Origin: a virus
Length of the DNA stretch: 44,426 bases
IMG/VR virus record: IMGVR_UViG_3300043313_000403
Location: 1 to 44,426 of that record
Strand: one strand, 5' to 3'
The translations under genes were made by a program, and so were the position numbers. Below the pieces are notes generated by a model. It had not been told where the DNA came from, did not search any database, and worked only from the letters and a program-made list of their open reading frames with translations. The first letter of the stretch is position 1. Every line of letters begins with the position of its first letter. Shown piece after piece: positions 100 through 44,426 of the stretch.

Positions 100-137
100 A
101 AAAAGCCCGCTGCGCCATTCGGTACAGCGGGCTTTTC
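100..137 (-). terminator. Rho-independent, potentially bidirectional terminator after CDS 151-765
   Basis: Stem aaaagcccgctg (101-112) pairs with cagcgggctttt (125-136) around a 12-nt loop. An A-run lies on one side and a T-run on the other. It sits directly downstream of the stop at 151. Confidence 0.7.
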
Positions 138-150
138 TGTGTCTGGGCCG

Positions 151-765
151 TTATGCCTTGGTCTTGTACTTTTCGATGAATTCAGCCGGGGCCTCACTTT
201 CGCTACCCGTCGGCCATTTGAGAACGCCCGCGTTCGCCACCACCTTCTGCAGCGCAACACGCCCCGTCATGCGGAACCGACCTTCCCACCCTCTGGTTTG
301 GCTGGTCCAGCGCGAATGATCCACACCATTCGCATCCAGCACGTCCTTAAACGCTCCGATGTCGATGCTGTGCTTATCATTCAGGCAGAACGTGGCAAGC
401 TGCTGGCTCAGCCAGTCCCAATTCGATCTCTTGGCTGCCTTGCCCGGAATGCCGTTTGCCCGCGCGTTCTCAATGTACTTCACCTTAAACTTGTCCTTCA
501 CCACCGAAATGCTCTCCTTCGGCTCCTCTTCGGCGGGTTCTTCCTTCTCTTCGGCGTCCAACGGGGCGTTCATCTCTTGGTAGATTTCGCGTGCGATTTC
601 GTGATCCTCTTTGGTGATCTCATCTTCTCTGGGTTCGCGTTCCTCGCCGCTCTGGATCCCCATTTCGGTGGGCATGTCGTAACCCGAATGTTCGCGCGCC
701 AATTCGCGCTCCGAATCGATCGCTGCCCGTTCCGCCTCAGTCTGCTTGCGTGCTCTCTTCGCCAT
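151..765 (-). CDS. Paralog family member 1 (SVV-x3-[FY]-x3-Y ... GW-x-GR-x-RMTGR domain), function unknown
   Basis: ATG at 765 follows a GGAGAAG RBS. The longer track ORF to 846 would start inside the promoter. The C-terminal ~110 aa are about 60% identical by eye to CDS 42974-43459 and clearly related to 3667-4191 and 7653-8081. Confidence 0.7.
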   Translation of the reverse strand: MAKRARKQTEAERAAIDSERELAREHSGYDMPTEMGIQSGEEREPREDEITKEDHEIAREIYQEMNAPLDAEEKEEPAEEEPKESISVVKDKFKVKYIENARANGIPGKAAKRSNWDWLSQQLATFCLNDKHSIDIGAFKDVLDANGVDHSRWTSQTRGWEGRFRMTGRVALQKVVANAGVLKWPTGSESEAPAEFIEKYKTKA

Positions 766-817: not shown

Positions 818-846
818 ACTGTAACACGACGACAGCGTGCTGTCAA
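818..846 (-). promoter_or_regulatory. sigma70-type promoter for CDS 151-765
   Basis: The reverse complement reads gggggaTTGACA-gcacgctgtcgtcgtgt-TACAGT. It is divergent from the promoter at 888-916. Confidence 0.6.
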
Positions 847-3031: not shown

Positions 3032-3619
3032 ATGGACGAACTAACACAAGCGATGCGGGCGCTAGAAGCTGCCGTCGAGGCGAGCAAGGCTGCGAACAGC
3101 AAGTTCGAGGCCAAACTGACTTTCGCTAGGCGGTGCGAAATTCTTGCATTACACCGCATGGGTTGCACGCGCGAGGCATTGGCCGAACTGTACGGGGTGG
3201 ATAGGAGAACAATCACCCATATTCACAACCCAAAATCACCACGGTACAAGAACGTGCGCGAGGAAGAGTTACGCCTAGGTAAGGAGAATTTTCTAAAGGA
3301 GTACTTGGACACAGACATGTTGAATGCCGCCGCGTCCAAGGTAACTTCCAAAATAGGGGTCAAGGAGGAAAACAACAAGAAATCCAACCGAATGGCCGGT
3401 GTCCACACCATGCGCAATGAGTTCTGCGACTATGATCACCGCGTCATAATCAAATGGTTGGACGCGGACCCCAACCTGAATGCTGCTGTTTCGGGTTGGT
3501 ACTACCAAGATTTGGACAGCGAATGGCCAACTGACTGGTTCCACGGCGATGCTGAATCCCTCAGAACCAGCCAAAACTGTTTCAACCACGCCAAGATGGA
3601 CATCAGTGATAAGCTATAG
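3032..3619 (+). CDS. Putative HTH DNA-binding / transcription regulator
   Basis: GGAGGA RBS. The segment RRCEILALHRMGCTREALAELYGVDRRTITHI looks like a helix-turn-helix. Confidence 0.6.
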   Translation: MDELTQAMRALEAAVEASKAANSKFEAKLTFARRCEILALHRMGCTREALAELYGVDRRTITHIHNPKSPRYKNVREEELRLGKENFLKEYLDTDMLNAAASKVTSKIGVKEENNKKSNRMAGVHTMRNEFCDYDHRVIIKWLDADPNLNAAVSGWYYQDLDSEWPTDWFHGDAESLRTSQNCFNHAKMDISDKL

Positions 3620-3648
3620 TTGACAGGCCGGGGGTGATGTGCTAAAAT
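3620..3648 (+). promoter_or_regulatory. sigma70-type promoter for paralog member 2
   Basis: TTGACA-ggccgggggtgatgtgc-TAAAAT, starting immediately after the upstream stop codon. A GGGAGA RBS and the ATG at 3667 follow. Confidence 0.65.
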
Positions 3649-3666: not shown

Positions 3667-4191
3667 ATGGATAGAATCAACGGAATACCAACAGACGGTA
3701 CAATCGCGTACAAAGAGGGCTGGTTCGCAGGGGACTGCCCTTATTTGGATCAAGACCCTGAATTCGGCAGGTGGAACGACGAATGGGACGCCGCCGCCGA
3801 TTACAACGAAGAACACCCAAAGCCCAGAGTAGGGTCGGTGGTGACGAATCGATATCGTGCCCTGTATTCGGAGTCGGGGCACGCAACCCACTGCGGGGAT
3901 GCACTTGCCCTCCTCCTCAATTCGGTGTGCGTCAACAAGGCGGGCACGAACCTCGAGATATTCGAGGCGATCTGCGCGGCGAACGGAGTCGACCTGTCCA
4001 AATACAACCGCACGAATAAGGGTTGGCAGGGTCGGCTACGAATGACGGGACGGAACTTACTCGCCAAGCGCGTCTTGGCTAACAACGGCAAGTTGATTAT
4101 GCCGGAAGGGATGGGTGACGACTACCAATTAGACTACGACTGGATTACCACCACCGCAAACAAATACAAACCGAAAACGGAGCATGCATGA
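3667..4191 (+). CDS. Paralog family member 2, function unknown
   Basis: Shares SVVTNRYRALY ... ANGVD ... GWQGRLRMTGRNLLAKRV with the other three members. Confidence 0.7.
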   Translation: MDRINGIPTDGTIAYKEGWFAGDCPYLDQDPEFGRWNDEWDAAADYNEEHPKPRVGSVVTNRYRALYSESGHATHCGDALALLLNSVCVNKAGTNLEIFEAICAANGVDLSKYNRTNKGWQGRLRMTGRNLLAKRVLANNGKLIMPEGMGDDYQLDYDWITTTANKYKPKTEHA

Positions 4192-4907: not shown

Positions 4908-4936
4908 TTGACGGGCGCTGCGGCCTGTGGTATACT
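4908..4936 (+). promoter_or_regulatory. sigma70-type promoter for the primase-helicase gene
   Basis: TTGACG-ggcgctgcggcctgtgg-TATACT. It is followed by a structured leader (gccgcgac ... gtcgcggc). Confidence 0.6.
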
Positions 4937-5011: not shown

Positions 5012-7570
5012 TTGGGGGACAATGGGGATAGCATGGAACAAATCAAGGGCGGCTTCGCGTTCAACAACGCGGACGAACTGCTCATCAATCAACAACGATC
5101 TATTACTGCCCAGATAAACAATAACTTCATCCAAGTCGGCGCGACCTTCTTGCAGATGTCAGGCAAGAATCCGTTCGCAACCGACTGGTATAAGCGAAAA
5201 TTCAGAGACACGAACCTGCAGGATTGGATAGACAATTCCAATATGCGCGTGCTGAATTTGGGCTTCAACCTCCAATTCGGTTGGTTGGACGTCGACATCG
5301 ATGCTGAAGACCCCGCCTACAATCGGTGCATGGTTAGCGCGTTCAAGTTCCTAGGCATCGACACTAGGTTCGCATTTGGGCGTTTGTCGCGCGGTGTTCC
5401 GAGCCACATGATGGTCCAACTCAACGAGACAGACCTGAACAACTATGACCAAATGAAGGAGTTTGAACCCAATGAATTCAAGCTGGGTGGGAAGCGGTAC
5501 AAGTGCGAATTACGCTCGATGGGGCCTTTGGCATCCGACTCACCTAACACCATCAAAGAATCACGACAGACCGTTATGCCCGGTTCCATCTACATCCATA
5601 AGTCCAAGCAGGGCGAACACGACGTGTCGGTTTGGTATACCGCGGAAGGCAAAGTTGCCCTCACGGTGGGCGAAATCGCAGCGACCACCTCCCGCAAAAC
5701 TAGCTTCGAATCCCTTATCACGGGCATTGCTTTTGGAACGTTTTTATACATTATCCAACCGCACTGGATCGAAGGTGGGCGACAACAACTGGCTACTAAG
5801 GTCGCTGGCTGGCTTGCGCGCCTCGTCCGAGAATCTCAAGGAATAAACAACAACGAGGGGATAAGCAACGGGACGTTCTGCCCGATTGGGTCGCCAGAAA
5901 CAGCCGAATCCATGCTAGATTTCGTGTGCGGCGAGCTAGGCGACAAAGAACCTTTCATGAGAAAGCGAGTGTTCCGTGACGCCATCAAGAAGCTCGAGAA
6001 TAATCCAGATGCTAAGATCCCCGGATGGCCAGCTTTGGAAGGAGACATTGGAACCGAATCCATCATGGCCCTGCGAACAGTGTTTATGCCAGGGGTTGAC
6101 GTGTCTCCACTTACCCAAATGGCGGATCGTTACATATACGACGAAACCGACGACCATTACATCGACAGGGAGCGATTCTACACAACCTCCGGGTTCGTCC
6201 ACGACGGGGCCGCTTTAGATCGACGACACCGAAATGACCTGATGGAAGTTGCGGGCAAGATGAAGCCTGTGTTCAGGCTGTTTGAGACTAGCCCACTTCG
6301 ACGCCGCGTCGGCGGCAGGGACTTATTCCCCGATTTCAGCCCCGGCTCTATATTTCGCTTAAGTCGATCTGGTGACGTCATTTCGGACGACGAGGATAAC
6401 GCCCCCGGCACGCTAACTATGTTCAACACGTGGCGCGGCTGGCCAATTCTCCCGGCCAAGAACATTGATCCAGTTCTTATAGCGAAATGCCACTCGATGA
6501 TGGAGCGGCTATTCGGCTACCTGTCCCAAGACAACACGACCCAAATAGAGTGGTTGAAGCAATGGATAGCATGGACTGTACAACATCCGGGGCAAAAGCA
6601 GCAGGTTTCTCCAGTATTTGTGGGTGGGCAGGGTGTCGGCAAGTCCTTTTTTGGAAATATTTTCCTAGAGCAACTGTTTCAGAACCAGTGGGGTTCCGCG
6701 TCACCAAAGATATTGGAAGGCACGTTCTCTGTCGAGCCTTTCATCAACAAGATGATTGTGTTTATCGACGAGGCCAAATTCCACAGCGAAGCGGCGACAG
6801 ACGAAATCAAGAAGTTGATCCGGTCGGACAGGATGGGTGGTGCGGAGAAGTTCCAGTCTGCGCGGACTTATCGTATTTTTGCACGGGTTGTGTTTGCCAG
6901 TAACCGATGGGACATGAACATAGGCCAAGCGAACACGCAGGATCGTGCATTATTCTACATGAAGACCTACGACAAAGACTACAAGAAGATGACGGAAAAT
7001 GAATTTAGATCATGGACAGTTACTCTCAAGCCATTCTTTGATGAGTTCAACAGCTTTATCCGTCGTATGGATGTCAAGGAGCACTTCATGCACATCTTCG
7101 ACACTATGGAAGTTAGTCGCCACAATATCGAGAACGTCACCCACTCAAGCGGAGCAGATAGCCAGATCGTTGAATCCAATATGGCCTATCCTCGCAGGGT
7201 TGCAAAACACATCGTGGAGGAAGGACGCATTTGGGAAGATCTCGATATAAGCGCACCGTTCACCATGGTGGAATTCAATAAGCGGGTGGCTGATATCTGC
7301 GATTCGGCCCGCATTCGCTATGTCCAGCCCCGCCACGTATTCGATGAGTTCGTCAGCGCTGGCGTCATCGAAAAGTGGGCTAAGGACGGGGCCAAATTCT
7401 ACAGGTTCAAGTACAAGATTGGCACCCTAACCGAAATGATGAGCCTAGCAATAGGCGTACCGCTGGAATCCAGGTTCTCCTTTGATGAGAGTGATTTTGG
7501 CATCAACGAATCCGAATTACTAGGAGCAAAGCAATGGCGCGGCAGCATAAACAGCCGTTTCCGTATGTGA
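5012..7570 (+). CDS. Bifunctional AEP primase-polymerase / SF3 (D5-like) helicase
   Basis: The N-terminal region has a DxD motif (WLDVDIDAED) typical of the archaeo-eukaryotic primase fold. The C-terminal region has Walker A (VGGQGVGKSFF) and Walker B (MIVFIDEA). The start could instead be the ATG at 5033. Confidence 0.88.
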   Translation: MGDNGDSMEQIKGGFAFNNADELLINQQRSITAQINNNFIQVGATFLQMSGKNPFATDWYKRKFRDTNLQDWIDNSNMRVLNLGFNLQFGWLDVDIDAEDPAYNRCMVSAFKFLGIDTRFAFGRLSRGVPSHMMVQLNETDLNNYDQMKEFEPNEFKLGGKRYKCELRSMGPLASDSPNTIKESRQTVMPGSIYIHKSKQGEHDVSVWYTAEGKVALTVGEIAATTSRKTSFESLITGIAFGTFLYIIQPHWIEGGRQQLATKVAGWLARLVRESQGINNNEGISNGTFCPIGSPETAESMLDFVCGELGDKEPFMRKRVFRDAIKKLENNPDAKIPGWPALEGDIGTESIMALRTVFMPGVDVSPLTQMADRYIYDETDDHYIDRERFYTTSGFVHDGAALDRRHRNDLMEVAGKMKPVFRLFETSPLRRRVGGRDLFPDFSPGSIFRLSRSGDVISDDEDNAPGTLTMFNTWRGWPILPAKNIDPVLIAKCHSMMERLFGYLSQDNTTQIEWLKQWIAWTVQHPGQKQQVSPVFVGGQGVGKSFFGNIFLEQLFQNQWGSASPKILEGTFSVEPFINKMIVFIDEAKFHSEAATDEIKKLIRSDRMGGAEKFQSARTYRIFARVVFASNRWDMNIGQANTQDRALFYMKTYDKDYKKMTENEFRSWTVTLKPFFDEFNSFIRRMDVKEHFMHIFDTMEVSRHNIENVTHSSGADSQIVESNMAYPRRVAKHIVEEGRIWEDLDISAPFTMVEFNKRVADICDSARIRYVQPRHVFDEFVSAGVIEKWAKDGAKFYRFKYKIGTLTEMMSLAIGVPLESRFSFDESDFGINESELLGAKQWRGSINSRFRM

Positions 7571-7585
7571 TATATTCAAGCTAGG

Positions 7586-7614
7586 TTGACAGCCAGCCGT
7601 CGCTGTGGTAGGAT
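7586..7614 (+). promoter_or_regulatory. sigma70-type promoter for paralog member 3
   Basis: TTGACA-gccagccgtcgctgtgg-TAGGAT. An AGAGGTGA RBS and the ATG at 7653 follow. Confidence 0.65.
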
Positions 7615-7652: not shown

Positions 7653-8081
7653 ATGACTGACGAAGTGCAGACGACCGAGGAAGTGAAAAAGACGAAGTCG
7701 ATCGTGCCGTCCAAGTACAGTGGCCGGTACAAGAACGGCGGCGAAGATCCGCTTGCCAAGTTCATCAAGGAACAGTGCGTCGTTGAGGGTAACTTCAGCT
7801 TCGACAAGTTCTTTGAACTGACCGCCAGCAATGGCGTTCCGCAGGAGAAGGTCGACCACTACAAGGCACAGGTTGGCGAGAAGCGCCACGGTGCCGAAGG
7901 ACGTGCACGAATGACGCTCCGCAACATGCTGGCGACCATCGTGCGCAAAAACGGCAAGGCCACCGGCCTCGACGGAAGTGAAGTTGCCATCGACCTGCCG
8001 AAGCCAGCCCTTACGGGTGCGGCTAAGGCGGCTCAGGAAGCGACCTCCACAGGTAGTCAAGCTGAACCTGCCGCTGCCTAA
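7653..8081 (+). CDS. Paralog family member 3 (most divergent), function unknown
   Basis: SIVPSKYSGRY ... SNGVPQEKV ... GAEGRARMTLRNMLATIV aligns with the family motifs. Confidence 0.65.
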   Translation: MTDEVQTTEEVKKTKSIVPSKYSGRYKNGGEDPLAKFIKEQCVVEGNFSFDKFFELTASNGVPQEKVDHYKAQVGEKRHGAEGRARMTLRNMLATIVRKNGKATGLDGSEVAIDLPKPALTGAAKAAQEATSTGSQAEPAAA

Positions 8082-8191: not shown

Positions 8192-8220
8192 TTGACAGCG
8201 CCCGCGCGGCGTGGTACGAT
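8192..8220 (+). promoter_or_regulatory. sigma70-type promoter for the replication operon
   Basis: gggggaTTGACA-gcgcccgcgcggcgtgg-TACGAT. Confidence 0.65.
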
Positions 8221-13421: not shown

Positions 13422-13450
13422 TTGACAGCCGATCAGGAGCGTGCTAAAAT
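13422..13450 (+). promoter_or_regulatory. sigma70-type promoter motif overlapping RBS and start codon of the next gene
   Basis: TTGACA-gccgatcaggagcgtgc-TAAAAT. The spacer contains AGGAG, and the last two nt of the -10 are the AT of the ATG at 13449. Confidence 0.5.
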
Positions 13451-14056: not shown

Positions 14057-14433
14057 ATCCGAAGTTACGCGACACCCCGTTGGAAATCGCCGAAGGCACC
14101 TTGCTCGACGCTGGCGATGCTATTCGTGCCCGCCTCAAGGAACACGGCCACACCGAGCGTTCATTCAAAATGGTAGGCGAACTGTGGAGCGTGTACATTT
14201 CGCACGCTTACACCAGCCGCGACCAGTTGCACTTGCAGCCCCACGACATAGCCCAAATGATGACCCTCACCAAAATCGCGCGGGCTGTCTATGGCTATTC
14301 GATGGACAACTTCATTGATGGGGCCGGTTACACTGCCCTCGCGTCGATGCTGACACCGCCCCCTGCGGTGAAGTCGCCGAAAGTGCAGCCGTTGGTGCAG
14401 CCCAAGAAAGAAGAATCCGATGGGACTGTTTAA
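14053..14433 (+). CDS. DUF6378-like protein (nucleotide-metabolism-associated, function unknown)
   Basis: ATG at 14053 in an ATGA overlap. ERSFKMVGELWSVYISH...LQPHDIAQMMTLTKIARAVYG...DNFIDGAGYTALAS resembles my recollection of DUF6378. It overlaps the purZ start by 14 nt. Confidence 0.55.
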   Translation: MNPKLRDTPLEIAEGTLLDAGDAIRARLKEHGHTERSFKMVGELWSVYISHAYTSRDQLHLQPHDIAQMMTLTKIARAVYGYSMDNFIDGAGYTALASMLTPPPAVKSPKVQPLVQPKKEESDGTV

Positions 14434-15472
14434 GTACAACGGCGTTCATTGCGTCGTCGACGGTCAATTTGGCTCAACGGGAAAGGGGGCGCTCAGCGCC
14501 TACCTTGCCGAAATAGCCATCAAGCACGGCCACGCGGGCAAATTCAGCGGCGCGATTTACAGCGGGGGTCCTAACAGCGGGCACACGTTCTACCACGGCG
14601 ACGAGAAGATCGTGCTCAAGCAACTCCCCGTGTTCAGCGTGTATATGCGTTGCGCCGGGATACACGTCCCGGCTTACCTATCGGCGGGGGCGATAATTGA
14701 TCGCGATATCCTGAGGAAAGAGGCGGAGAAATTCCCCAATCTCCAGATTTTCGTGCACCCCAACGCCGCCATCGTAACCAACGAGGACCGTAAACACGAA
14801 GAGGACGGCCCAATAGCGAAAGTGGCAGGAACTCGGAGCGGGACCGGCGAAGCGTTGGTCCGGAAGATACGTCGGATGCCCGAAGCCATCGCTGGCAATT
14901 CGCTGGGCTTGATTGCCCATAACGTATCCATTCTTAACCACCGGATCAAGCCGGAGCGCAACGCCTACTTTATGGAAGTATCACAGGGGTTCAGCCTTGG
15001 CATCAACTCACAGTTTTACCCAAAAGTTACGAGCCGCGAGTGCACCGTAATGCAAGGATTAGCTGATGCTAGAATTCCTCCGCGACATTTATCGCGTACT
15101 TATATGGCAATCCGTACCTTTCCTATTCGGGTGGGGGATGTCGATGGCTATTCTGCTGGCGGTTGGTATCAAGATCAGCATGAGACTAACTGGGATAATC
15201 TAGGGGTCACGGAAGAGAGAACGACGGTGACCAACCGTGTCCGGAGGGTTGCATCATTCTCCATGGAGCAATTCTTCGAGGCTTGCTACGCCAACGATCC
15301 GGACTACGTGTTCGTCAGCCACATGGATTATCTGGACCGCGAAGGACAGATCAGCCTAATGGAGGACCTTAACGCCGCCAAGGGAACAATGAACAAATAC
15401 TTTGATTTCCTCGTGGCGAGGGGACCCAAAGTGAGCGATGTATTAAGAGAGGAAGCAATATATGCAGAATGA
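14420..15472 (+). CDS. purZ: PurZ-type N6-succino-2-amino-2'-deoxyadenylate synthase (short PurA homolog)
   Basis: PurA motifs occur in order: DGQFGSTGKG (P-loop, GDEGKG in PurA), GGPNSGHTF, AGTRSGTGEA, EVSQGFSLGINSQFYPKVTS, RTFPIRVG, TTVTNRVRRV. It is 350 aa (archaeal/PurZ-sized) and lies next to a MazG-like gene in a phage. Confidence 0.75.
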   Translation: MGLFKYNGVHCVVDGQFGSTGKGALSAYLAEIAIKHGHAGKFSGAIYSGGPNSGHTFYHGDEKIVLKQLPVFSVYMRCAGIHVPAYLSAGAIIDRDILRKEAEKFPNLQIFVHPNAAIVTNEDRKHEEDGPIAKVAGTRSGTGEALVRKIRRMPEAIAGNSLGLIAHNVSILNHRIKPERNAYFMEVSQGFSLGINSQFYPKVTSRECTVMQGLADARIPPRHLSRTYMAIRTFPIRVGDVDGYSAGGWYQDQHETNWDNLGVTEERTTVTNRVRRVASFSMEQFFEACYANDPDYVFVSHMDYLDREGQISLMEDLNAAKGTMNKYFDFLVARGPKVSDVLREEAIYAE

Positions 15473-25423: not shown

Positions 25424-25591
25424 TCACTTGATGCAGCGTTCAAGAATTTTATCGCGGCGCTCGACGGCTTCGCTTACTTGTGTCAAAGTAAGCGCGAACC
25501 CTATCAACACAAACGTGTTAATCAACAGCACCGCCAACAGAAACGGCGTCTGTTTAAAATCCCTGACGATTGTTTCAACAATCTGGTTCAT
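25424..25591 (-). CDS. 55-aa single-pass membrane protein
   Basis: MNQIVETIVRDFKQTPFLLAVLLINTFVLIGFALTLTQVSEAVERRDKILERCIK. Its ATG overlaps the stop of the remnant ORF. Below the track cutoff. Confidence 0.4.
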   Translation of the reverse strand: MNQIVETIVRDFKQTPFLLAVLLINTFVLIGFALTLTQVSEAVERRDKILERCIK

Positions 25592-25620
25592 TTGATTTTG
25601 GTGAGTTGATAGTCGGACAT
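25588..25620 (-). pseudogene. 10-codon remnant (MSDYQLTKIK*) of the fibre-associated gene seen intact at 27061-27363
   Basis: The first 7 codons and the upstream junction are nucleotide-identical to the start of CDS 27061-27363 (MSDYQLT...). The frame then stops. Confidence 0.55.
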
Positions 25621-25634
25621 GTCAGAGCCTCGCG
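25600..25634. repeat. 35-bp direct repeat copy 1 (fibre stop / downstream gene start junction)
   Basis: ggtgagttgatagtcggacatgtcagagcctcgcg is identical to 27343-27377. Confidence 0.95.
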
Positions 25635-27061
25635 TCGAATAGAGCACCGCCTTGCGTAGTGAAAGCATTGCCAGTAGCTAACCCACCCGCAAAGGTCATA
25701 TTTATGCCGACCTGGTTGTTGTCGATGGTGTTGATCGCCATGCTTGTTGCTTCCACCCAAGCAGCACCGTTATAGAAGGACCACCTTCCATTCGTGACAC
25801 CATTCGCCCCGCGATAAAAAGTCACGGCTGGGTTGCTTCTCATCGGCCTAAAGAATTGTTTAAGGACAGTAATGGCGGTGGACGAAACAACATTCCCAAT
25901 ATGTTGAGCGCCCGTTATGCCGTCACTTACAGCCCCTTCAGGATTAAACCCGATCTTTTGTAGATACCTCTGGCACGTAACCAGTTCCTGATCGTAAGGC
26001 CGCATGATCAACGGCGAGCGCGCGGCGGATGGCGCTTCGATGCCGGGGAGGACGATCAGGCCAGAAATACGAAAAACATCTGAGGTAGCGGCAACGGCAT
26101 TCACTTGACCGGGCGCGGCCTGATAGCCTGTCGAGAGCCACGTATTAGCCGTTGGCGCGGTCAAAGCAGCGCCACTAGCCATCGGGAAGGCTAAAACAAT
26201 ACCAATGCCGTTAGTCGTGAGCCAAGTACCATCTGTGCATCCGGGGATGGTAACAATGTTGTATTGAGAAACATCAGCCACGGCTTGTGTGTAAGCAGCG
26301 CAGTAACTGCGGTTGCCCGCGCCATTGCTTGCCGTAATCGAGTAAACGCCTGTCCGGTGGTGCGCCGTCCAGAAACCTATCGTTATCGGCAGGGCATTCG
26401 CCGTCCCCCACGCCAGACGCGCCACGCGATAGCCTTCTATGCGATGATGTAAAATAGAATAATCCGAAGCACCAAGCGATGGTTGAGCGGTTGAGACTGC
26501 CGAGTAGAGCACCGCAGGGAGACCGGGGGCCAAGGGGGCAGACAAAGCCATTCCTGACGACACGACCATCGTACCCGTTTTTAGGTAGGTCCAATTGTCG
26601 CAAATGACACTGCCGGATGACGAACTCGTATTTCCTACGCCAAGCTCCTGATTTATCTCCATCCCGCCGTTGATCTGCATGCCGCTGTAGGCCATCGCAT
26701 CGAACGGTGCGGCGTAGATGTTCTGGCGCGATGTTACAACGTTAGCGACGTCGCTCAGATTAGCTGTTTTTAAGAGCCTAAGAGCATCTTGGGTATCGAC
26801 GTAACTTTGAGAAACGGTACCAGCTACCGCCGTATCGACGTAATCCTTGCGCACCGCATTCGCTGCTGCTGGCGTTGTCGGCAACGTCAAATGGCCCGTC
26901 ATCGTGTCGCCAGCTACATCTACATAGCGAAGATCAGCATCGGCCTGAGTAATACCGCCGCCAGCCGCAGTCGGCGTGATACCCCACTTCTCACCGTCCC
27001 AAGTATACTTATCGTACACTGTTCCGGGGGTAGGCGAAACTGGGAAGTCAAGCGCGGCCAT
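25622..27061 (-). CDS. Tail fibre protein 2 (479 aa), paralog of the C-terminal two-thirds of the 563-aa fibre
   Basis: Shares NIYAAPFDAMAYSGMQING, IEGYRVARL.WG.ANA.P.T.GFW.AH, VTIPGC.DG.W, VLPGIEAP.AAR and RP.DQELVTC.RY with CDS 27365-29056. The N-terminus FPVSPTPGTVYDKYTWDGEKW is typical of fibres. Confidence 0.8.
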   Translation of the reverse strand: MAALDFPVSPTPGTVYDKYTWDGEKWGITPTAAGGGITQADADLRYVDVAGDTMTGHLTLPTTPAAANAVRKDYVDTAVAGTVSQSYVDTQDALRLLKTANLSDVANVVTSRQNIYAAPFDAMAYSGMQINGGMEINQELGVGNTSSSSGSVICDNWTYLKTGTMVVSSGMALSAPLAPGLPAVLYSAVSTAQPSLGASDYSILHHRIEGYRVARLAWGTANALPITIGFWTAHHRTGVYSITASNGAGNRSYCAAYTQAVADVSQYNIVTIPGCTDGTWLTTNGIGIVLAFPMASGAALTAPTANTWLSTGYQAAPGQVNAVAATSDVFRISGLIVLPGIEAPSAARSPLIMRPYDQELVTCQRYLQKIGFNPEGAVSDGITGAQHIGNVVSSTAITVLKQFFRPMRSNPAVTFYRGANGVTNGRWSFYNGAAWVEATSMAINTIDNNQVGINMTFAGGLATGNAFTTQGGALFDARL

Positions 27062-27363
27062 TATTCGCCCTTCATCTTCTGTACGAAATCAGCTATCGAT
27101 AGCGGTGGCTCGCCTTCTATCTCTCGCAGCCGGTTCTCATGATCGTACATTATTAATTGCGCATCACTTGGTGTCGGCGGAACTGGCTCGGGTGGAACAT
27201 ACGGATCAGGGGTATTACCGCCTTCCTTCCACTGGATATAACCGGGACTGAAGGCATCGCCGTTATAGTCGCGGTTCGCCATGTCGGGCGGAATGCATGC
27301 GCCATCGAGGTTTCTGATGACGCTGCAGGGTTCTTCGGTTGCGGTGAGTTGATAGTCGGACAT
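27061..27363 (-). CDS. Fibre-associated protein (100 aa; possible assembly factor)
   Basis: It starts 1 nt after the fibre stop and has TAATG coupling to the next fibre gene. Pro-rich middle. The function is inferred from position only. Confidence 0.55.
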   Translation of the reverse strand: MSDYQLTATEEPCSVIRNLDGACIPPDMANRDYNGDAFSPGYIQWKEGGNTPDPYVPPEPVPPTPSDAQLIMYDHENRLREIEGEPPLSIADFVQKMKGE

Positions 27364-27377
27364 GTCAGAGCCTCGCG
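27343..27377. repeat. 35-bp direct repeat copy 2
   Basis: Identical to 25600-25634. Confidence 0.95.
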
Positions 27378-29056
27378 CTTGCGGTCCAGTGTAACGTAAG
27401 GTTATATTGATTTGCGGCGGCAGAATTGGCGAGCCAGCGAAATCCGCGTTCGCCTATCATGTCTGTTGTTACGGCCACATCCCCAGTAAAAGCATCCTGT
27501 GCTTTATTTGCCGCGCCGGTATTCGGAGAATAGCCGATCACTGACGGTGCGGCCCGCATCGAAATACCAAACGAGACGACATGCCCTCCAGCCGGCAGTC
27601 CGCTCAAACCCGTCAGATAAAATGCCGCAACGCCCGCCGAGTTAACCGTCCCCGGCCGCACTGAATAATCGTAGCTCTTTTGCCAATATCTCCTGCACGT
27701 CACCAACTCCTGATCGAACGGTCTCATGATGAATGCTGCCCGCGCGGCGGTTGGCGCTTCGATGCCGGGGAGGACGACGACGCCGGAAAAGTTGAGCGAC
27801 GCGCCGGCTGTTCCAGCATTCACCTGTCCCGGCGCGGCAACATAAATCGTGCTGTACCAGGTATTTGCCGCAGGGCTGATCAAATTGGCCGCAGTCCCTA
27901 TGCAAAAACTCAAACTAATGCCAACGCCGTTGGTCTTATTCCACACTCCGTCTATGCAGCCGGGAATGGTTACAGTCTTGTACTCCTGCGCATTGCTCAC
28001 ATTTTGTGTATAGGTTGCTGTGTAGCAGCGGCTGCCATCAAAGTTGTTTACGGCAATAGAGTAAATTCCGGTTAGGCTGTGGGCGACCCAAAAACCCAAG
28101 GTCAACGGTTGCGCGTTTGCACTTCCCCAATTCAAGCGCGCGACGCGATAGCCTTCGATGAGTTGATATAATTGCGCACGTTGGCTGCTGCCAAACGTCA
28201 GCGACGTGCCGAACGTGAGTTGCACATAGTTGGGAATGCCGGGAAACCCATTAGAACCATAAACGGTCCCATACATACTCCCAGTTGCATTGTTAAATAT
28301 GGCCCAGCCGTCGCAGGCGTAAGTGGTGGCAGTGGCATCGGAAATAACGGGCGTCGTGATTGGATATTGCTGACTGACCTCCATCGACCCGTTGATCTGC
28401 ATGCCGCTGTACGCCATCGCGTCGAAGGGCGCGGCGTAGATGTTCTTGCGCGCGGTTGTTTGTTGCGCTTCGGTTATAACCTGCGCAGTATCATAGCGAA
28501 CAGCCTTGGTAGCTATCTCCGTAGTAACAGCGGTGGTAGAAGCCTTCGAAGTGTCGCTGGGATGAACATGATCGCCCCGCGCAAAAAATGCCGAAACACC
28601 GGGGGCAGCAATGCTATCCATTAATGGAGCAGCGTCCCAAGGCGCGTTACCTCCATTTGATAACGTGGTAAGCGCTACCCAATACGAATTAGGCGTAGGA
28701 TCAGTGTAATAAATATACAGAATACCGGTATCATTTTCAAACCACAGATTACCCGCCACGGGAGAATCAGGCGGGGTAAGCGAAATCGTAACAGAAGCTC
28801 CGCCGCCACTTCCGCCGCCACCTGACGAAGCGATGGTAAGCGTATCCGCAGTATCATCGTATGTAAGGGTTACGTTAGGTCCGGCCCGCAACAACGAAGC
28901 CACACGATCGTCGATTATTTCGCCGAGTTCGCTTACTGGAGTAATGCTAGCATCAAGTATATCAAAATTTACGTTTAATTTATTGCCCCAAGTGTCATCG
29001 GAAGCTCCGACGTCGGGCTTTGTTAGCGCGAGTTTTGGTGTATATTCGTCAGACAT
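27365..29056 (-). CDS. Tail fibre protein 1 (563 aa)
   Basis: N-terminal anchor-like motif TPKLALTKPDVGASDDTWGNKLNVNFDILD and a Gly run (SSGGGGSGGGAS). The C-terminal region is paralogous to CDS 25622-27061. Confidence 0.8.
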   Translation of the reverse strand: MSDEYTPKLALTKPDVGASDDTWGNKLNVNFDILDASITPVSELGEIIDDRVASLLRAGPNVTLTYDDTADTLTIASSGGGGSGGGASVTISLTPPDSPVAGNLWFENDTGILYIYYTDPTPNSYWVALTTLSNGGNAPWDAAPLMDSIAAPGVSAFFARGDHVHPSDTSKASTTAVTTEIATKAVRYDTAQVITEAQQTTARKNIYAAPFDAMAYSGMQINGSMEVSQQYPITTPVISDATATTYACDGWAIFNNATGSMYGTVYGSNGFPGIPNYVQLTFGTSLTFGSSQRAQLYQLIEGYRVARLNWGSANAQPLTLGFWVAHSLTGIYSIAVNNFDGSRCYTATYTQNVSNAQEYKTVTIPGCIDGVWNKTNGVGISLSFCIGTAANLISPAANTWYSTIYVAAPGQVNAGTAGASLNFSGVVVLPGIEAPTAARAAFIMRPFDQELVTCRRYWQKSYDYSVRPGTVNSAGVAAFYLTGLSGLPAGGHVVSFGISMRAAPSVIGYSPNTGAANKAQDAFTGDVAVTTDMIGERGFRWLANSAAANQYNLTLHWTASARL

Positions 29057-29889: not shown

Positions 29890-30197
29890 TATTTACCAAC
29901 CCTGCCGCGCCAAATTCGGAATGCCGCATTATCTGGGTCGTCGAGCCAACGCGCCCAGTCTTTGCTGTCCCAACCTTCGAGAATGGATTTCTCGTAGACT
30001 GCGACGGGCACCCCTCGTGCCACCAACTTATTAGTGGAGCGTCTAGGGTGGAGTTCCCTCATTATCTTATTATTTTCGAGGGCCTGCGTTAGGTCTTGTT
30101 CGGTATAGACACGGACCGTTTCAGGTTCATCGTCTTCCCACACCATCGTGCGCTTCACAGCGCCGTCGTTTTGATACACATGCTTTCGTTCGGTCAT
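29889..30197 (-). CDS. Hypothetical protein (102 aa)
   Basis: I used the ATG at 30197. The track start at 30224 is the TTG of the promoter -35 box. This ATG overlaps the -10 hexamer, so the start is uncertain. Confidence 0.5.
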   Translation of the reverse strand: MTERKHVYQNDGAVKRTMVWEDDEPETVRVYTEQDLTQALENNKIMRELHPRRSTNKLVARGVPVAVYEKSILEGWDSKDWARWLDDPDNAAFRIWRGRVGK

Positions 30198-30224
30198 ACT
30201 AGCACGGCCTGAGTTCGCTGTCAA
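30196..30224 (-). promoter_or_regulatory. sigma70-type internal late promoter (tail and fibre genes)
   Basis: The reverse complement reads TTGACA-gcgaactcaggccgtgc-TAGTAT in the short gap after CDS 30243-30668. Confidence 0.55.
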
Positions 30225-36936: not shown

Positions 36937-37211
36937 TATTTATCCCCTTTGTTGTACTTCTGCCTTACCTTATGGTCGGCGATGTACTGTTCTAACTGAG
37001 CTTTGAGTTCAGTGATGGCCTTGAGCATAGCATGGGCCTGCCCCGCTGTCAAGCTACCGACATCTCCACTTATCAGTGTTCCCAGTGCTCTGGAATATAT
37101 ATCGTCGATCGCCGATTTGAACACAGGACTATTTAATAGTCCTTCCGCCGCCGCCGCCTTCTCCTCAACCTCGAAGTTACTGAGGCGGGATTTCTGGTCC
37201 TGCGCTTCCAT
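36936..37211 (-). CDS. Hypothetical protein (91 aa) between portal and scaffold
   Basis: It overlaps the portal 3' end by 35 nt and has TAATG coupling to the scaffold gene. It contains an embedded promoter motif. Confidence 0.5.
   Translation of the reverse strand: MEAQDQKSRLSNFEVEEKAAAAEGLLNSPVFKSAIDDIYSRALGTLISGDVGSLTAGQAHAMLKAITELKAQLEQYIADHKVRQKYNKGDK
37024..37052 (-). promoter_or_regulatory. sigma70-type promoter motif embedded in CDS 36936-37211
   Basis: The reverse complement reads TTGACA-gcggggcaggcccatgc-TATGCT, with the same TGCTATGCT -10 as the late promoter at 42625-42653. It would drive scaffold, HNH and capsid genes. Confidence 0.5.
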
Positions 37212-42038: not shown

Positions 42039-42593
42039 TTAACGTTCCTTTCTACGGGTGGTGGGCGCTTCAGTGAATGTAAACATAACTGTATTAGATT
42101 GAACGTCGTCGTTTCTTACATACACTGGGAGGCTATCTGGGCCATGCCAAACATCCATGTTCACCCCAGTTTTAACTGAACTGGACGACACCAAAGTGGT
42201 GGGTTCATCCTGATTAGCGAAATTGATAACCGTACTGTTATCGAATCCAGATCCCGCGATCACTAAATCGAAACTTGGGTCCCCAATGGCCGCCGTGGTA
42301 GGCGAAATACTATTTATAACCGGTGTCGAAGTGGGGACTTGATCTCCTACGCGCTTATCCACATTGCTCGTGAGGGGAGGCGAAAGGGATGCTCCCGAAG
42401 AACTGACAAGAACATCCGCGCCGTCGTCAATAGCGTCCTGTTCGTTATGTTTAACGCTACAGGCCTTTGCATTAGGTCCCGGCGGAGGGTTCACGGTTGC
42501 GGGGCCGCTCGGAACACCAAGGTCATCCAATGGGAGCCAGCCAATTTCGCCTGGAGCCAAATCACCTACTTGATCGTCGTAAAGACCGGCCAT
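42039..42593 (-). CDS. IPT/TIG (Ig-like) domain protein, first gene of the late arm
   Basis: ATG at 42593 follows a GGAGGG RBS, downstream of the promoter at 42625-42653. The C-terminus PVINSISPTTAAIGDPSFDLVIAGSGFDNSTVINF...LPVYVRNDDVQSNTVMFTF is IPT/TIG-like. Confidence 0.6.
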   Translation of the reverse strand: MAGLYDDQVGDLAPGEIGWLPLDDLGVPSGPATVNPPPGPNAKACSVKHNEQDAIDDGADVLVSSSGASLSPPLTSNVDKRVGDQVPTSTPVINSISPTTAAIGDPSFDLVIAGSGFDNSTVINFANQDEPTTLVSSSSVKTGVNMDVWHGPDSLPVYVRNDDVQSNTVMFTFTEAPTTRRKER

Positions 42594-42624
42594 AAGCGAA
42601 ACCCTCCGTGTATACGAAGTGGGC

Positions 42625-42653
42625 AGCATAGCACGTGGTATGAAGACTGTCAA
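42625..42653 (-). promoter_or_regulatory. sigma70-type promoter heading the late (structural) arm
   Basis: The reverse complement reads TTGACA-gtcttcataccacgtgc-TATGCT. Confidence 0.6.
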
Positions 42654-42766
42654 GTTAGGAAGGGATGTTCCGGGGGTATTCGGAAGGGAGGATTCAACGA
42701 TTTGCGAATTGTTGGGGGAGCACTGATACGCGCGCCGCAAGCAATTCCACGCCGAAACGGGTCCCG

Positions 42767-42793
42767 CCCCCGACAAACAAAGTTTGTCGGGGG
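42767..42793. promoter_or_regulatory. Perfect 12-bp-stem hairpin/palindrome in the divergent control region
   Basis: cccccgacaaac-aaa-gtttgtcggggg. No T-run on either strand, so it is not a canonical terminator. Confidence 0.4.
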
Positions 42794-42900
42794 TCGGGGG
42801 GAGTTGCAACGAGCCGCGCGTACAACTTGAGTTGCACAACCACACCACCACAACTGGGAGTACTGCGGCAACGTGTCACATTATGCGAGCGTGCTCGTCG

Positions 42901-42909
42901 TGGTACGAT
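42901..42909 (+). promoter_or_regulatory. Extended -10 element (TGGTACGAT) upstream of paralog member 4
   Basis: cgTGGTACGAT is identical to the -10 region of the promoter at 8192-8220, but no TTGACA lies 17 nt upstream. Confidence 0.35.
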
Positions 42910-42973
42910 GCTCGGGCGATGGGGACGAAGGGCGGCCAATCCGGCAGGCCCATCCCACGCGAGGAGAGCCATC

Positions 42974-43459
42974 ATGGCCAAGAAGACACACACGCCCACC
43001 GCTGCCGAAGTCGCAGCCAAGTTCGACGCAGCCATGGCTGTCGTGCACGAACTCCCCACGCTCGCCGATCTGCCGATCGACGCCGAAGTCGCGGAGGAGA
43101 TCGAGAAGAAGGGCTCGGTCGTGAAGAGCACGTACAAGAAGAAGTACGCGGCGCGCGCGGCCGGTGCCGGGCTTGGTAAGACAGCCCAGCGCTCGTGCTG
43201 GGACTGGCTGGCGCAAGAGCTGGCGAGCGAGTGCCTCGACGGCACGAAGATCGACATCGGCCGGTTCCTCGCCACGCTCGAAGCCAACGCCGTGGACCAC
43301 AGCCGATGGACGAACCGCAGCAAGGGCTGGGAAGGACGCCTGCGGATGACAGGCCGCCTCGCACTCCAGAAGGTGGTGGCCGCCCAAGGGCACCTGAAGA
43401 CGGTCGAGGGCGCCGAAATTGCAGCGCCCGCCGAGTGGGTGGCGAAGTTCACGAACTGA
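42974..43459 (+). CDS. Paralog family member 4, function unknown
   Basis: ATG at 42974 follows a GAGGAGAG RBS. SVVKSTYKKKY...CWDWLAQELASECL...IDIGRF...ANAVDHSRWTNRSKGWEGRLRMTGRLALQKVV. It is the closest relative of CDS 151-765. Confidence 0.7.
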   Translation: MAKKTHTPTAAEVAAKFDAAMAVVHELPTLADLPIDAEVAEEIEKKGSVVKSTYKKKYAARAAGAGLGKTAQRSCWDWLAQELASECLDGTKIDIGRFLATLEANAVDHSRWTNRSKGWEGRLRMTGRLALQKVVAAQGHLKTVEGAEIAAPAEWVAKFTN

Positions 43460-43467
43460 GAAGGCAG

Positions 43468-43492
43468 GGGGCGGCGCAAGCCGCCCCTTTCT
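43468..43492 (+). terminator. Rho-independent terminator after paralog member 4
   Basis: ggggcggc (43468-43475), gcaa loop, gccgcccc (43480-43487), then tttct. Confidence 0.75.
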
Positions 43493-43590
43493 CGTCCCAA
43501 GCGCGGCGAAGCGCCTCGTTCAGCGAAAGCTGGGCGGGGCGCATTCGTGTGTCTGAAACTCAGCATCGCGAAGCGTTTCGCAACGCGTGG

Positions 43591-43632
43591 GCCAAAGAAA
43601 AGGGGCGCAGCGGAAGTGGCCCGCCGCGCCCC
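43591..43632 (-). terminator. Rho-independent terminator of the minus-strand early unit
   Basis: On the minus strand, ggggcgcggcgg...ccgctgcgcccc (stems 43602-43613 / 43621-43632) is followed by tttttctttgg. It lies just after the stop at 43647. Confidence 0.7.
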
Positions 43633-43646
43633 CGCCGGAATATGTG

Positions 43647-43838
43647 CTACTTCTCGAGGGGAATGATGAGAAGGCGATCACGCAGAACGCGCAGCAGTTC
43701 CTCGCGGCGCTTAGAAGAGATCTGCTTCGCTGCGAAGGCCTCCCAGACTTCGGCAGCGCCTTGGAAGTGTACGGCGCGCGTATAAAACAGCGCGGTGGCT
43801 GCGGCGGCGTACGGCGAAAGATCGGTCGAAGAGGGCAT
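43647..43838 (-). CDS. Possible 63-aa protein
   Basis: ATG at 43838 follows GGAG. MPSSTDLSPYAAAATALFYTRAVHFQGAAEVWEAFAAKQISSKRREELLRVLRDRLLIIPLEK. It is bracketed by its own promoter motif and terminator. Confidence 0.4.
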   Translation of the reverse strand: MPSSTDLSPYAAAATALFYTRAVHFQGAAEVWEAFAAKQISSKRREELLRVLRDRLLIIPLEK

Positions 43839-43872
43839 AGCGAAAACTCCAGCGGGACCATCCCGCGTGCGT

Positions 43873-43901
43873 ATTAGAGCACAGCGCGCGCACGCCGTCA
43901 A
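43873..43901 (-). promoter_or_regulatory. Weaker sigma70-type promoter motif for the 63-aa gene
   Basis: The reverse complement reads TTGACG-gcgtgcgcgcgctgtgc-TCTAAT, followed by a gcgggatggtcccgc hairpin at the predicted 5' end. Confidence 0.4.
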
Positions 43902-44152: not shown

Positions 44153-44380
44153 TCATCCTATTTTCGCTTGGAATACATCATAATCGTTGATCTTCGCTAC
44201 GCCATTTCCTATCTCTAGTTTTTCGGCGATTTGTTTCATTGGCGTATATAGAAGACTGGCCGCCCCGCGTAAATCACAGTCTGTTCCATCTTCATGGCCT
44301 CTCCCGTAAATCGTTAAGTGCTGAAACCGAATGTTCAACATATCCCGTTCTGCTTTTTCCCGCTTTAATTTACTGCTCAT
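44153..44380 (-). CDS. Hypothetical protein (75 aa), spans the window junction
   Basis: AGGAGAG RBS. Its first 23 nt are duplicated at 1-23. The promoter is at 48-76 (partly repeated at 44405-44426). Confidence 0.55.
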   Translation of the reverse strand: MSSKLKREKAERDMLNIRFQHLTIYGRGHEDGTDCDLRGAASLLYTPMKQIAEKLEIGNGVAKINDYDVFQAKIG

Positions 44381-44426
44381 TTCGCTCTCCTGTTTGAATC
44401 CCCTAGTTTACCACACCCCGCCCACC
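44358..44426. repeat. Terminal overlap copy B, identical to 1-69
   Basis: Exact 69-nt identity with the window start. Confidence 0.95.

Follow-up and report, generated by a model that had tools for sequence, protein, structure and literature searches.

IMG/VR virus record IMGVR_UViG_3300043313_000403 comprises 44,426 nucleotides (nt), and this whole stretch, referred to below as the window, was analysed here. It contains four open reading frames (ORFs), m1 to m4, which an initial annotation had described as a family of four paralogues with a common C-terminal module of about 110 amino acids (aa). All four ORFs are present on the strands and at the coordinates listed in Table 1, and each encodes an acidic N-terminal extension followed by a basic C-terminal module, which we delimit at about 115 residues. 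All six pairwise BLASTP comparisons were significant. The closest pair is m4 and m1 (57.9% identity over 114 aa, E 3e-43; the estimate by eye had been about 60%), followed by m1 and m2 (E 2e-17), m4 and m2 (E 2e-16), m4 and m3 as well as m2 and m3 (E 3e-10 each), and m1 and m3 (E 4e-5). Pairwise similarities without significance, the outcome named beforehand as counting against a family, were thus not found, all six E values being 4e-5 or lower.

A four-way alignment of m1–m4 contains 22 invariant columns, among them those of S-[IV]-V, Y, D-x-L, C, F, N-x-V-D and G-x-x-G-R-x-R-M-T-x-R-x-x-L. The motifs originally quoted for the family hold for m1, m2 and m4 and fail for m3, the most divergent copy (GAEGRARMTLR), which carries HGAEGRARMTLR where the other three have GW[EQ]GR[LF]RMTGR, has an insertion in its NGVD loop and ends in an Ala/Gln-rich tail. 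Against a family hidden Markov model (HMM) whose alignment includes these four sequences, m1–m4 scored between E 1e-67 and 1e-30. Each copy has orthologues on other contigs, at 76-100% identity; across phages m1, m2 and m4 are 76-88% identical to theirs, compared with 25-58% between paralogues, and m1 is 100% identical to P0001, a protein on a public 44,498-bp contig. Because orthologues on other contigs are closer than the paralogues of the same genome, m1–m4 are real conserved genes. Chance similarity and non-coding ORFs are ruled out by the E values together with the conserved orthologues, and all four genes are genuine paralogues within a single uncharacterised family.

Distribution, synteny and evolution of the family

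The family is essentially confined to podophage-like contigs of ~40-45 kb, many of them encoding PurZ. One search returned at least 1,131 proteins at E ≤ 1e-3 and another 743 clusters at 50% identity (469 at E ≤ 1e-10); among the 120 family matches listed, names were either absent or merely 'hypothetical'. Of the 150 best representatives, nearly all carry the module at the C-terminus. IMG/VR contributed 72 loci, mostly on contigs of ~40-45 kb. A search of phage and plasmid databases for the signature motif had been suggested at the outset: when 50,697 phage records were searched by tBLASTN with m4 and m2, only Ochrobactrum phage vB_OspP_OH (phage OH) and a weak match in Burkholderia phage Bm1 emerged, and the module was not found in 72,556 plasmids. 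A pattern-limited scan of 185,579 species-representative genomes gave one match.

Two to four copies were detected in 53 of 74 related loci by HMM scan of ORFs, in the fixed order A(+), A(-), B, C, which in the window correspond to m4, m1, m2 and m3. The A copy opens the early region; in one subclade, that of the window, another A copy lies in inverted orientation at a distance of 1-3 kb. The B copy, often a long form, lies upstream of the primase-helicase gene, and the C copy 4-5 kb past B, directly after the primase. Positional orthology of A, B and C held when tested across the 74 loci. Single-A phages, phage OH among them, stand about as far from m4 as from m1. Since orthologues are more alike than paralogues, and since single-A phages show this equidistance, we take A, B and C to be ancient and the A+/A- split to be specific to the subclade of the window. 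The comparison thus identifies three ancient orthologous groups rather than a recent four-fold expansion in one genome. The sole cellular match mentioned above is a frameshifted A-type remnant in an uncultured alphaproteobacterial metagenome-assembled genome (MAG; CAWBRU010000002.1, L075 9917-10496), where it adjoins a tyrosine-integrase-like ORF and an excisionase-like ORF.

In composition m4 is an outlier, with a GC content of 66% (genome 54%) and a GC content at third codon positions (GC3) of 85%, compared with a GC3 of 42-71% in nine other genes. It may have arrived by exchange with a higher-GC relative rather than by duplication in place. The gene sits, together with its terminator and a 63-aa ORF, in a GC-rich island (61-68%), which suggests either recent exchange with a higher-GC relative or strong codon bias.

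PurZ is encoded by phage OH, by the window and by at least 17 of 24 near-complete module-bearing contigs, a lower bound, as contigs were matched among the best 80 PurZ matches. This co-occurrence cannot be separated from shared ancestry.

No phage record matched the window at the DNA level, and phage OH (MT028492) is the only clear isolate relative by protein. It is a Wolominvirus with a linear genome of 41 kb and 55-bp terminal repeats, published as virulent. Three of its proteins, phiOH_p04, p15 and p23, carry the same module (HMM E 1e-42, 7e-38 and 6e-24); they are annotated as hypothetical only and are not discussed in the phage OH paper (PMC7139368). Like the window, phage OH has the A, B, C synteny around the primase, a palindrome upstream of the A gene (see below) and a PurZ-like gene, annotated there merely as adenylosuccinate synthetase. 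Unlike the window, it has no inverted duplicate of A, its only A copy pointing the same way as the early operon, and its B copy belongs to the long form: at 335 aa it carries an additional 'IHH' domain at the N-terminus that sets it apart from m2.

The weak match in phage Bm1 (CDS_0067, PP183292; phrog_8941) is borderline, at 23 bits, and covers the module centre (HCGD...G[IV]D..KY...G.Q.RM..GN.LR). Like the B and C copies of the window, CDS_0067 lies in a neighbourhood of replication genes; however, it is without GR-x-R, its module stands at the N-terminus ahead of a long tail rich in Lys, Ala and Glu, and it comes from a 67-kb phage of another type. Homology to the module is not established. 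As a bridge to an annotated family Bm1 was rejected, given the borderline score, its membership of phrog_8941, which is without known function, and its mere two database relatives.

Charge, conservation and predicted fold of the module

The charge pattern of the four window proteins (Table 1) is that of the family. Among 252 members, the mean net charge is +6.1 for the module and -10.5 for the N-terminus; 97% of modules are positive and 97% of N-termini negative. In family alignments of 63 and 150 sequences, 16-17 invariant or near-invariant columns are kept, with a near-invariant signature of SVV..Y, D-x-L, NGVD and GW-x-GR-x-RMT-x-R-x-x-L.

Two AlphaFold2 models were built from the 63-sequence alignment, one of full m4 and one of the module alone, with block-mean predicted local distance difference test (pLDDT) values of 85-96 in the core. 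The N-terminal extensions are poorly ordered and variable and the module is mostly alpha-helical. Its predicted elements in m4 are, in order, a helix at residues 53-64 (low confidence), a helix at 78-87, a short beta element, a helix at 95-104, a 14-residue NGVD loop, a helix at 119-138, a beta-hairpin at 140-150 and a helix at 153-160. The predicted helix 119-138 is 20 residues long and Arg-rich, and opens with GW-x-GR-x-RMT-x-R.

Searches for a known family

No family in Pfam, PHROGs, NCBIfam or PADLOC matched the module in m1–m4, in long-form relatives or in 150 diverse members searched one by one, and no HMM match recurred on the module across the 150. Profile searches of PDB sequences with the 63- and 150-sequence alignments gave only noise, such as the vesicular stomatitis virus L polymerase at E 0.2-0.4. 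With Foldseek, the two models reached best E values of 3.7 and 5.4 in the PDB (template modelling (TM) score ≤ 0.23), and the sole matches in BFVD were the three phage OH paralogues (E 8e-9, 1e-4 and 1e-2). Fold-search matches to ProQ/FinO (in BFVD, E about 5 and TM 0.29), DnaA-C and a replisome organiser, all at E about 5 or above, were taken as noise. Known anti-defence, sponge and DNA-mimic proteins gave no PADLOC match, and Foldseek against PDB and BFVD gave only the family's own orthologues. Literature searches on Wolominvirus, on PurZ with Ochrobactrum phage and on diaminopurine with transcription found nothing relevant. The inability of the initial annotation to place the module in any named family is therefore borne out by HMM, profile and fold searches alike, and the Pfam, AlphaFold and Foldseek analysis that it had proposed matched no well-characterised domain. 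With no characterised relative by sequence or structure, the module is new at the level of protein family and fold.

The N-terminus of type B proteins such as m2 weakly resembles Rmf/CrpP (PF04957, NF041886) through a short motif common to both, G-x3-G...C-P-[YF]...W-x3-W-x2-A, with matches that are in register and sub-threshold. The scores lie under the curated cut-offs and the motif lies outside the shared module. Pfam RMF matched 4 of the 150 members below threshold (best E 0.0027), and the best family member reached 14.3 bits against NCBIfam Rmf_CrpP, for which the cut-off is 28 bits. These sub-threshold matches are confined to family members, and in several long B-type proteins it is one common motif that is matched; m2 itself matched RMF in neither Pfam nor NCBIfam. 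Alignment with hhalign placed the B-type CPY...W..W against E. coli RMF at a probability of 6%, and a profile of the B-type N-terminal motif found no RMF chain among PDB sequences. An assignment of the m2 N-terminus to Rmf/CrpP was rejected, being sub-threshold in every test made. Many B-type relatives carry the further N-terminal 'IHH' domain of ~110 aa (M-x-IHH..KKAEK.G), for which neither PDB nor Pfam gave a match.

Promoters, terminators and the palindrome

The sequence TTGACAG-N16-TAnnnT, a predicted sigma-70-like promoter with an extended -10 element, occurs ten times in the window where 0.09 occurrences would be expected. The ten are near-identical, with TG two bases before TA, and an eleventh, close variant precedes the primase gene. 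Because these consensus promoters serve both the early (+) and the structural (-) arm, no separate late promoter class is evident. One lies directly upstream of each of m1, m2 and m3 (Table 1), and orthologues of m1 retain the m1-type promoter. Among relatives, 89 of 151 module genes (59%) have a consensus promoter within 700 nt upstream of the module start, where locus-wide site density predicts about 15%.

The m4 promoter has an extended -10 element and no -35 hexamer. Alignment of this upstream region with 11 relatives placed an imperfect palindrome at the -35 position. The palindrome is found upstream of 17 of 23 m4-type genes (0.05 expected) and of phage OH p04, and occurs once in the window genome. 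Such an arrangement would suit regulation by a DNA-binding protein that acts as a dimer, perhaps one of the A proteins. Directly after their stop codons, m1 and m4 each have their own terminator with a strong hairpin and a U-tract and are therefore monocistronic units. At the level of consensus sequence, these promoter and terminator signals are established.

Genome setting and the convergent interval

The plus strand carries, besides the module genes, the primase-helicase gene, genes for Pam3 gp33/gp34-like proteins, a family-A DNA polymerase and a helicase, and a PurZ-type gene, and the minus strand carries the structural and packaging genes. The gene m3 lies directly 3' of the primase-helicase gene. 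No phage RNA polymerase was seen among the ~30 ORFs scanned. The PurZ-type gene points to a Z-genome, with 2-aminoadenine in place of adenine, in this phage and its clade.

The first and last 69 nt of the window are an exact direct repeat, which gives a unit genome of 44,357 bp. The start codon and ribosome-binding site of a 75-aa ORF lie inside this repeat, which is therefore most likely an overlap of a circular assembly rather than a physical terminal repeat. When the genome is closed into a circle, 1,048 nt separate the facing stops of m4 and m1, so the convergent arrangement of the two closest copies across about 1 kb with two tiny genes (75 and 63 aa) was described correctly at first. The 'repeat region' placed there was not recovered: the interval contains no significant direct, inverted or tandem repeats, and no iterons, tRNAs or Rfam families were found in it. 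Each of the two small ORFs has one weak counterpart among relatives, and the interval between the two A copies varies among them.

Upstream of m4 lies a non-coding element conserved in 11 relatives, with an invariant ACGGGTCCCG, then a hairpin, then GGGTCGGGGGGAG (80-100% conserved per position); 10 of the 15 stem pairs show compensatory changes. Phage OH has a related ACGGGTCCCC...GGGGGGAG about 200 bp from its right genome end. The element has no Rfam match; candidate roles are an origin, a structured RNA or a signal for packaging or the genome terminus. Elsewhere, the structural arm holds a second pair of paralogues in adjacent minus-strand ORFs, whose DNA contains segments 79-91% identical at a constant offset of 1,722-1,743 nt. 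A protein with an IPT/TIG (Ig-like) domain (Pfam TIG, E 1e-5) is encoded by the first gene after the minus-strand promoter nearest to m4; the 270-aa ORF in which it lies probably starts at an internal ATG.

Table 1. Positions of the module genes, transcription signals and other features in the window.
Feature	Position (nt)	Strand	Description
m1 (type A-)	151-765	-	204 aa; N-terminal net charge -15, module +7, module pI 9.7
m1 N-terminal extension		-	86 aa
m1 module	154-507	-	residues 87-204
m1 promoter	818-846	-	TTGACAG-N16-TACAGT, 52 nt upstream of start codon
m1 terminator	100-137	-	hairpin + U5; -27.8 kcal/mol, z = -5.2
m2 (type B)	3667-4191	+	174 aa; N-terminal net charge -8, module +4, module pI 9.05
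m2 N-terminal motif	3667-3801	+	residues 1-45; G-x-P-x-D-G-x2-A-Y-x-E-G-x4-D-C-P-Y...W-x3-W-D-x-A-A
m2 module	3835-4188	+	from S57
m2 promoter	3620-3648	+	TTGACAG-N16-TAAAAT, 18 nt upstream of start codon
m3 (type C)	7653-8081	+	142 aa; N-terminal net charge -1, module +3, module pI 9.04
m3 module	7698 onward	+	from S16
m3 promoter	7586-7614	+	TTGACAG-N16-TAGGAT, 38 nt upstream of start codon
m4 (type A+)	42974-43459	+	161 aa (ORF and translation); N-terminal net charge -4, module +7, module pI 9.7
m4 acidic N-terminal part		+	residues 1-47
m4 module	43115-43456	+	residues 48-161
m4 signature	43325-43357	+	residues 118-128, GWEGRLRMTGR
m4 promoter region	42864-42909	+	extended -10 only, GTGGTACGAT (42900-42909)
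Palindrome	42864-42880	+	17 bp, TGCGGCAACGTGTCACA; clade consensus TGCGACA-N3-TGTCGCA
m4 terminator-like hairpin	43467-43495	+	UUUCUC tail; -26.1 kcal/mol, z = -3.5
Other predicted promoters	48-76	-
	888-916	+
	8192-8220	+
	13422-13450	+
Predicted promoters, remainder	30196-30224	-
	37024-37052	-
	42625-42653	-	before IPT/TIG gene
Promoter variant	4908-4936	+	TTGACG; before primase gene
Primase-helicase	5012-7570	+
PurZ-type adenylosuccinate synthetase	14420-15472	+	phrog_1211 '2-aminooxy adenylosuccinate synthetase', E 2e-54
Structural and packaging genes	17259 to about 42590	-
Second paralogue pair	25622-27061; 27365-29056	-	479 aa; 563 aa
DNA of second pair	25591-27061; 27334-29056
IPT/TIG domain protein	42039-42590	-	in 270-aa ORF 42039-42851; probable start at 42590
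GC-rich island	42750-43900
Conserved non-coding element	42757-42806	+	upstream of m4
Small ORF	43647-43838	-	63 aa
Small ORF	44153-44380	-	75 aa
Direct repeat	1-69 and 44358-44426		69 nt, exact

Discussion

We tentatively propose that the four proteins are early nucleic-acid-binding adaptors, a reading that we regard as quite possible rather than probable and in which the timing of expression, the ligand and the roles are only what we infer. They would probably be abundant early proteins, transcribed by host RNA polymerase from the phage consensus promoters. The invariant Arg-rich helix of the module would bind one common polyanionic ligand, most likely nucleic acid (DNA), and the divergent acidic N-termini would either recruit a different partner for each paralogue or serve in self-inhibition. 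For the A proteins we envisage a part in early transcription or takeover, and for B and C one alongside the replication module; the neighbours of B and C are replication genes (primase, Pam3 gp33/gp34-like genes and DNA polymerase). Nucleic-acid binding is compatible with the basic charge of the module predicted across the family. The confidently modelled core also has a predicted order of secondary-structure elements that resembles that of winged-helix domains. Phage proteins such as T7 gp2.5 and T4 gp32, as well as HMGB1, combine a basic binding domain with an acidic tail for partner binding or self-inhibition, and the basic domain and acidic tail of the window family may be analogous. The differences are that those proteins have an OB domain or HMG box where the window family has a helical orphan domain, and that the tail here is N-terminal; no homology was found.

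Several observations weigh against this proposal. None of the 150 diverse members matched a helix-turn-helix (HTH), winged-helix or other nucleic-acid-binding HMM, and Foldseek finds no solved structure at E < 3 (TM about 0.2), although winged helices are abundant in the PDB. Invariance of the putative binding helix in all three groups speaks against distinct sequence specificities, and the invariant polar residues (S, Y, D, N, D, T) could just as readily form a pocket that accommodates a small ligand or a conserved host protein. The palindrome is single-copy in the genome and no iterons were found. Proximity to promoters is only weakly specific because promoters are dense across the early region. 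A bolder form of the proposal, to which we give little credence, would have a new nucleic-acid-binding fold anchor, in PurZ podophages, three to four adaptors that couple host machines to Z-substituted DNA, with A serving RNA polymerase at extended -10 promoters and B and C serving the primase and replisome; the palindrome would then be the operator of an early switch through which m1 controls m4.

A less likely but serious alternative is that the proteins act in host takeover or anti-defence through protein contact, the module docking on one conserved host protein (RNA polymerase, a nucleoid protein or a defence component) and the acidic tails serving as DNA mimics or effector arms. Consistent with this, the genes stand at the head of the early region with strong predicted promoters, the N-termini are very acidic, as in DNA-mimic proteins (-15 in m1, in a family averaging -10.5), and the polar residues invariant in all paralogue groups fit a single fixed target. 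The near absence of the family from cellular genomes and plasmids, and the variable interval between A copies, like that of an accessory-gene hotspot, point the same way. Neither a PADLOC model nor, by Foldseek against the PDB, a solved anti-defence protein was matched, however, and such genes are usually patchy, whereas three of these copies are positionally fixed across a deep clade, with B and C inside the replication module. We consider it doubtful that the proteins are instead sequence-specific regulators with an atypical winged-helix-like fold, the A-type acting on the A(+) palindrome (by autoregulation, or with m1 switching on m4) and B and C controlling other units. The predicted order of helix, beta, two helices and beta-hairpin, with a basic module and an Arg-rich third helix, resembles that of a winged helix; m1 and m4 each stand at a divergent promoter region; and the palindrome lies upstream of A genes, at about -44 of a promoter without a -35 hexamer, in most m4-type genes and phage OH p04. 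Yet the model has a 14-residue loop between its second and third helices where the turn should be, and since no HTH HMM or fold matched, the module is not filed as a winged helix. A single palindrome site in the genome offers no candidate targets for B and C, the candidate recognition helix is invariant among paralogues, and the palindrome might just as well be the target of a host factor or of another phage protein, encoded at 3032-3619, that gave a sub-threshold HTH match.

The remaining explanations seem to us highly improbable. If the proteins bound small molecules or nucleotides, whether as a sponge or as a small enzyme and perhaps in connection with the metabolism of 2-aminoadenine (Z) DNA, the invariant S, Y, D, N, D, R, R, T, R pattern, which resembles a ligand pocket, and the co-occurrence with PurZ would be accommodated. 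That co-occurrence is confounded by shared ancestry, though, and the module is found in no other sequenced phage, PurZ-encoding or not, the tBLASTN searches having returned only phage OH and the weak Bm1 match. No known sponge or enzyme matched in fold, and a sponge would not readily account for three or four paralogues that differ in their tails. Slightly less probable still is a role in which the module binds RNA and the Rmf/CrpP-like motif of B-type proteins targets the ribosome, biasing translation. The module is basic and Arg-rich, and both the recurrence of sub-threshold Rmf matches on one motif in several long B-type members and the hhalign placement agree with such a role. Against it, every Rmf match fell below cut-off, the hhalign probability was very low, no RMF chain emerged from the PDB profile search, the motif is absent from A and C, and the ProQ/FinO matches in BFVD are noise.

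Orphan early genes are common in phages. The novelty here is limited to the protein family and fold, no new mechanism is shown, and the practical importance is moderate. The four-gene set nevertheless takes up about 4.6% of the genome, and its distribution marks the module as a conserved multi-copy hallmark of a large PurZ-encoding phage clade known mostly from metagenomes. Conserved multi-copy synteny, a confidently predicted fold without match and a cultured relative make it a sensible target; with phage OH and its host POC9, knock-outs and biochemistry are feasible. Should the module prove to be a new nucleic-acid- or host-factor-binding fold, this would give a function to the gene set that defines a widespread clade of PurZ phages. 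In that case it could also shed light on how early transcription and replication proceed on modified DNA in phages without an RNA polymerase of their own.

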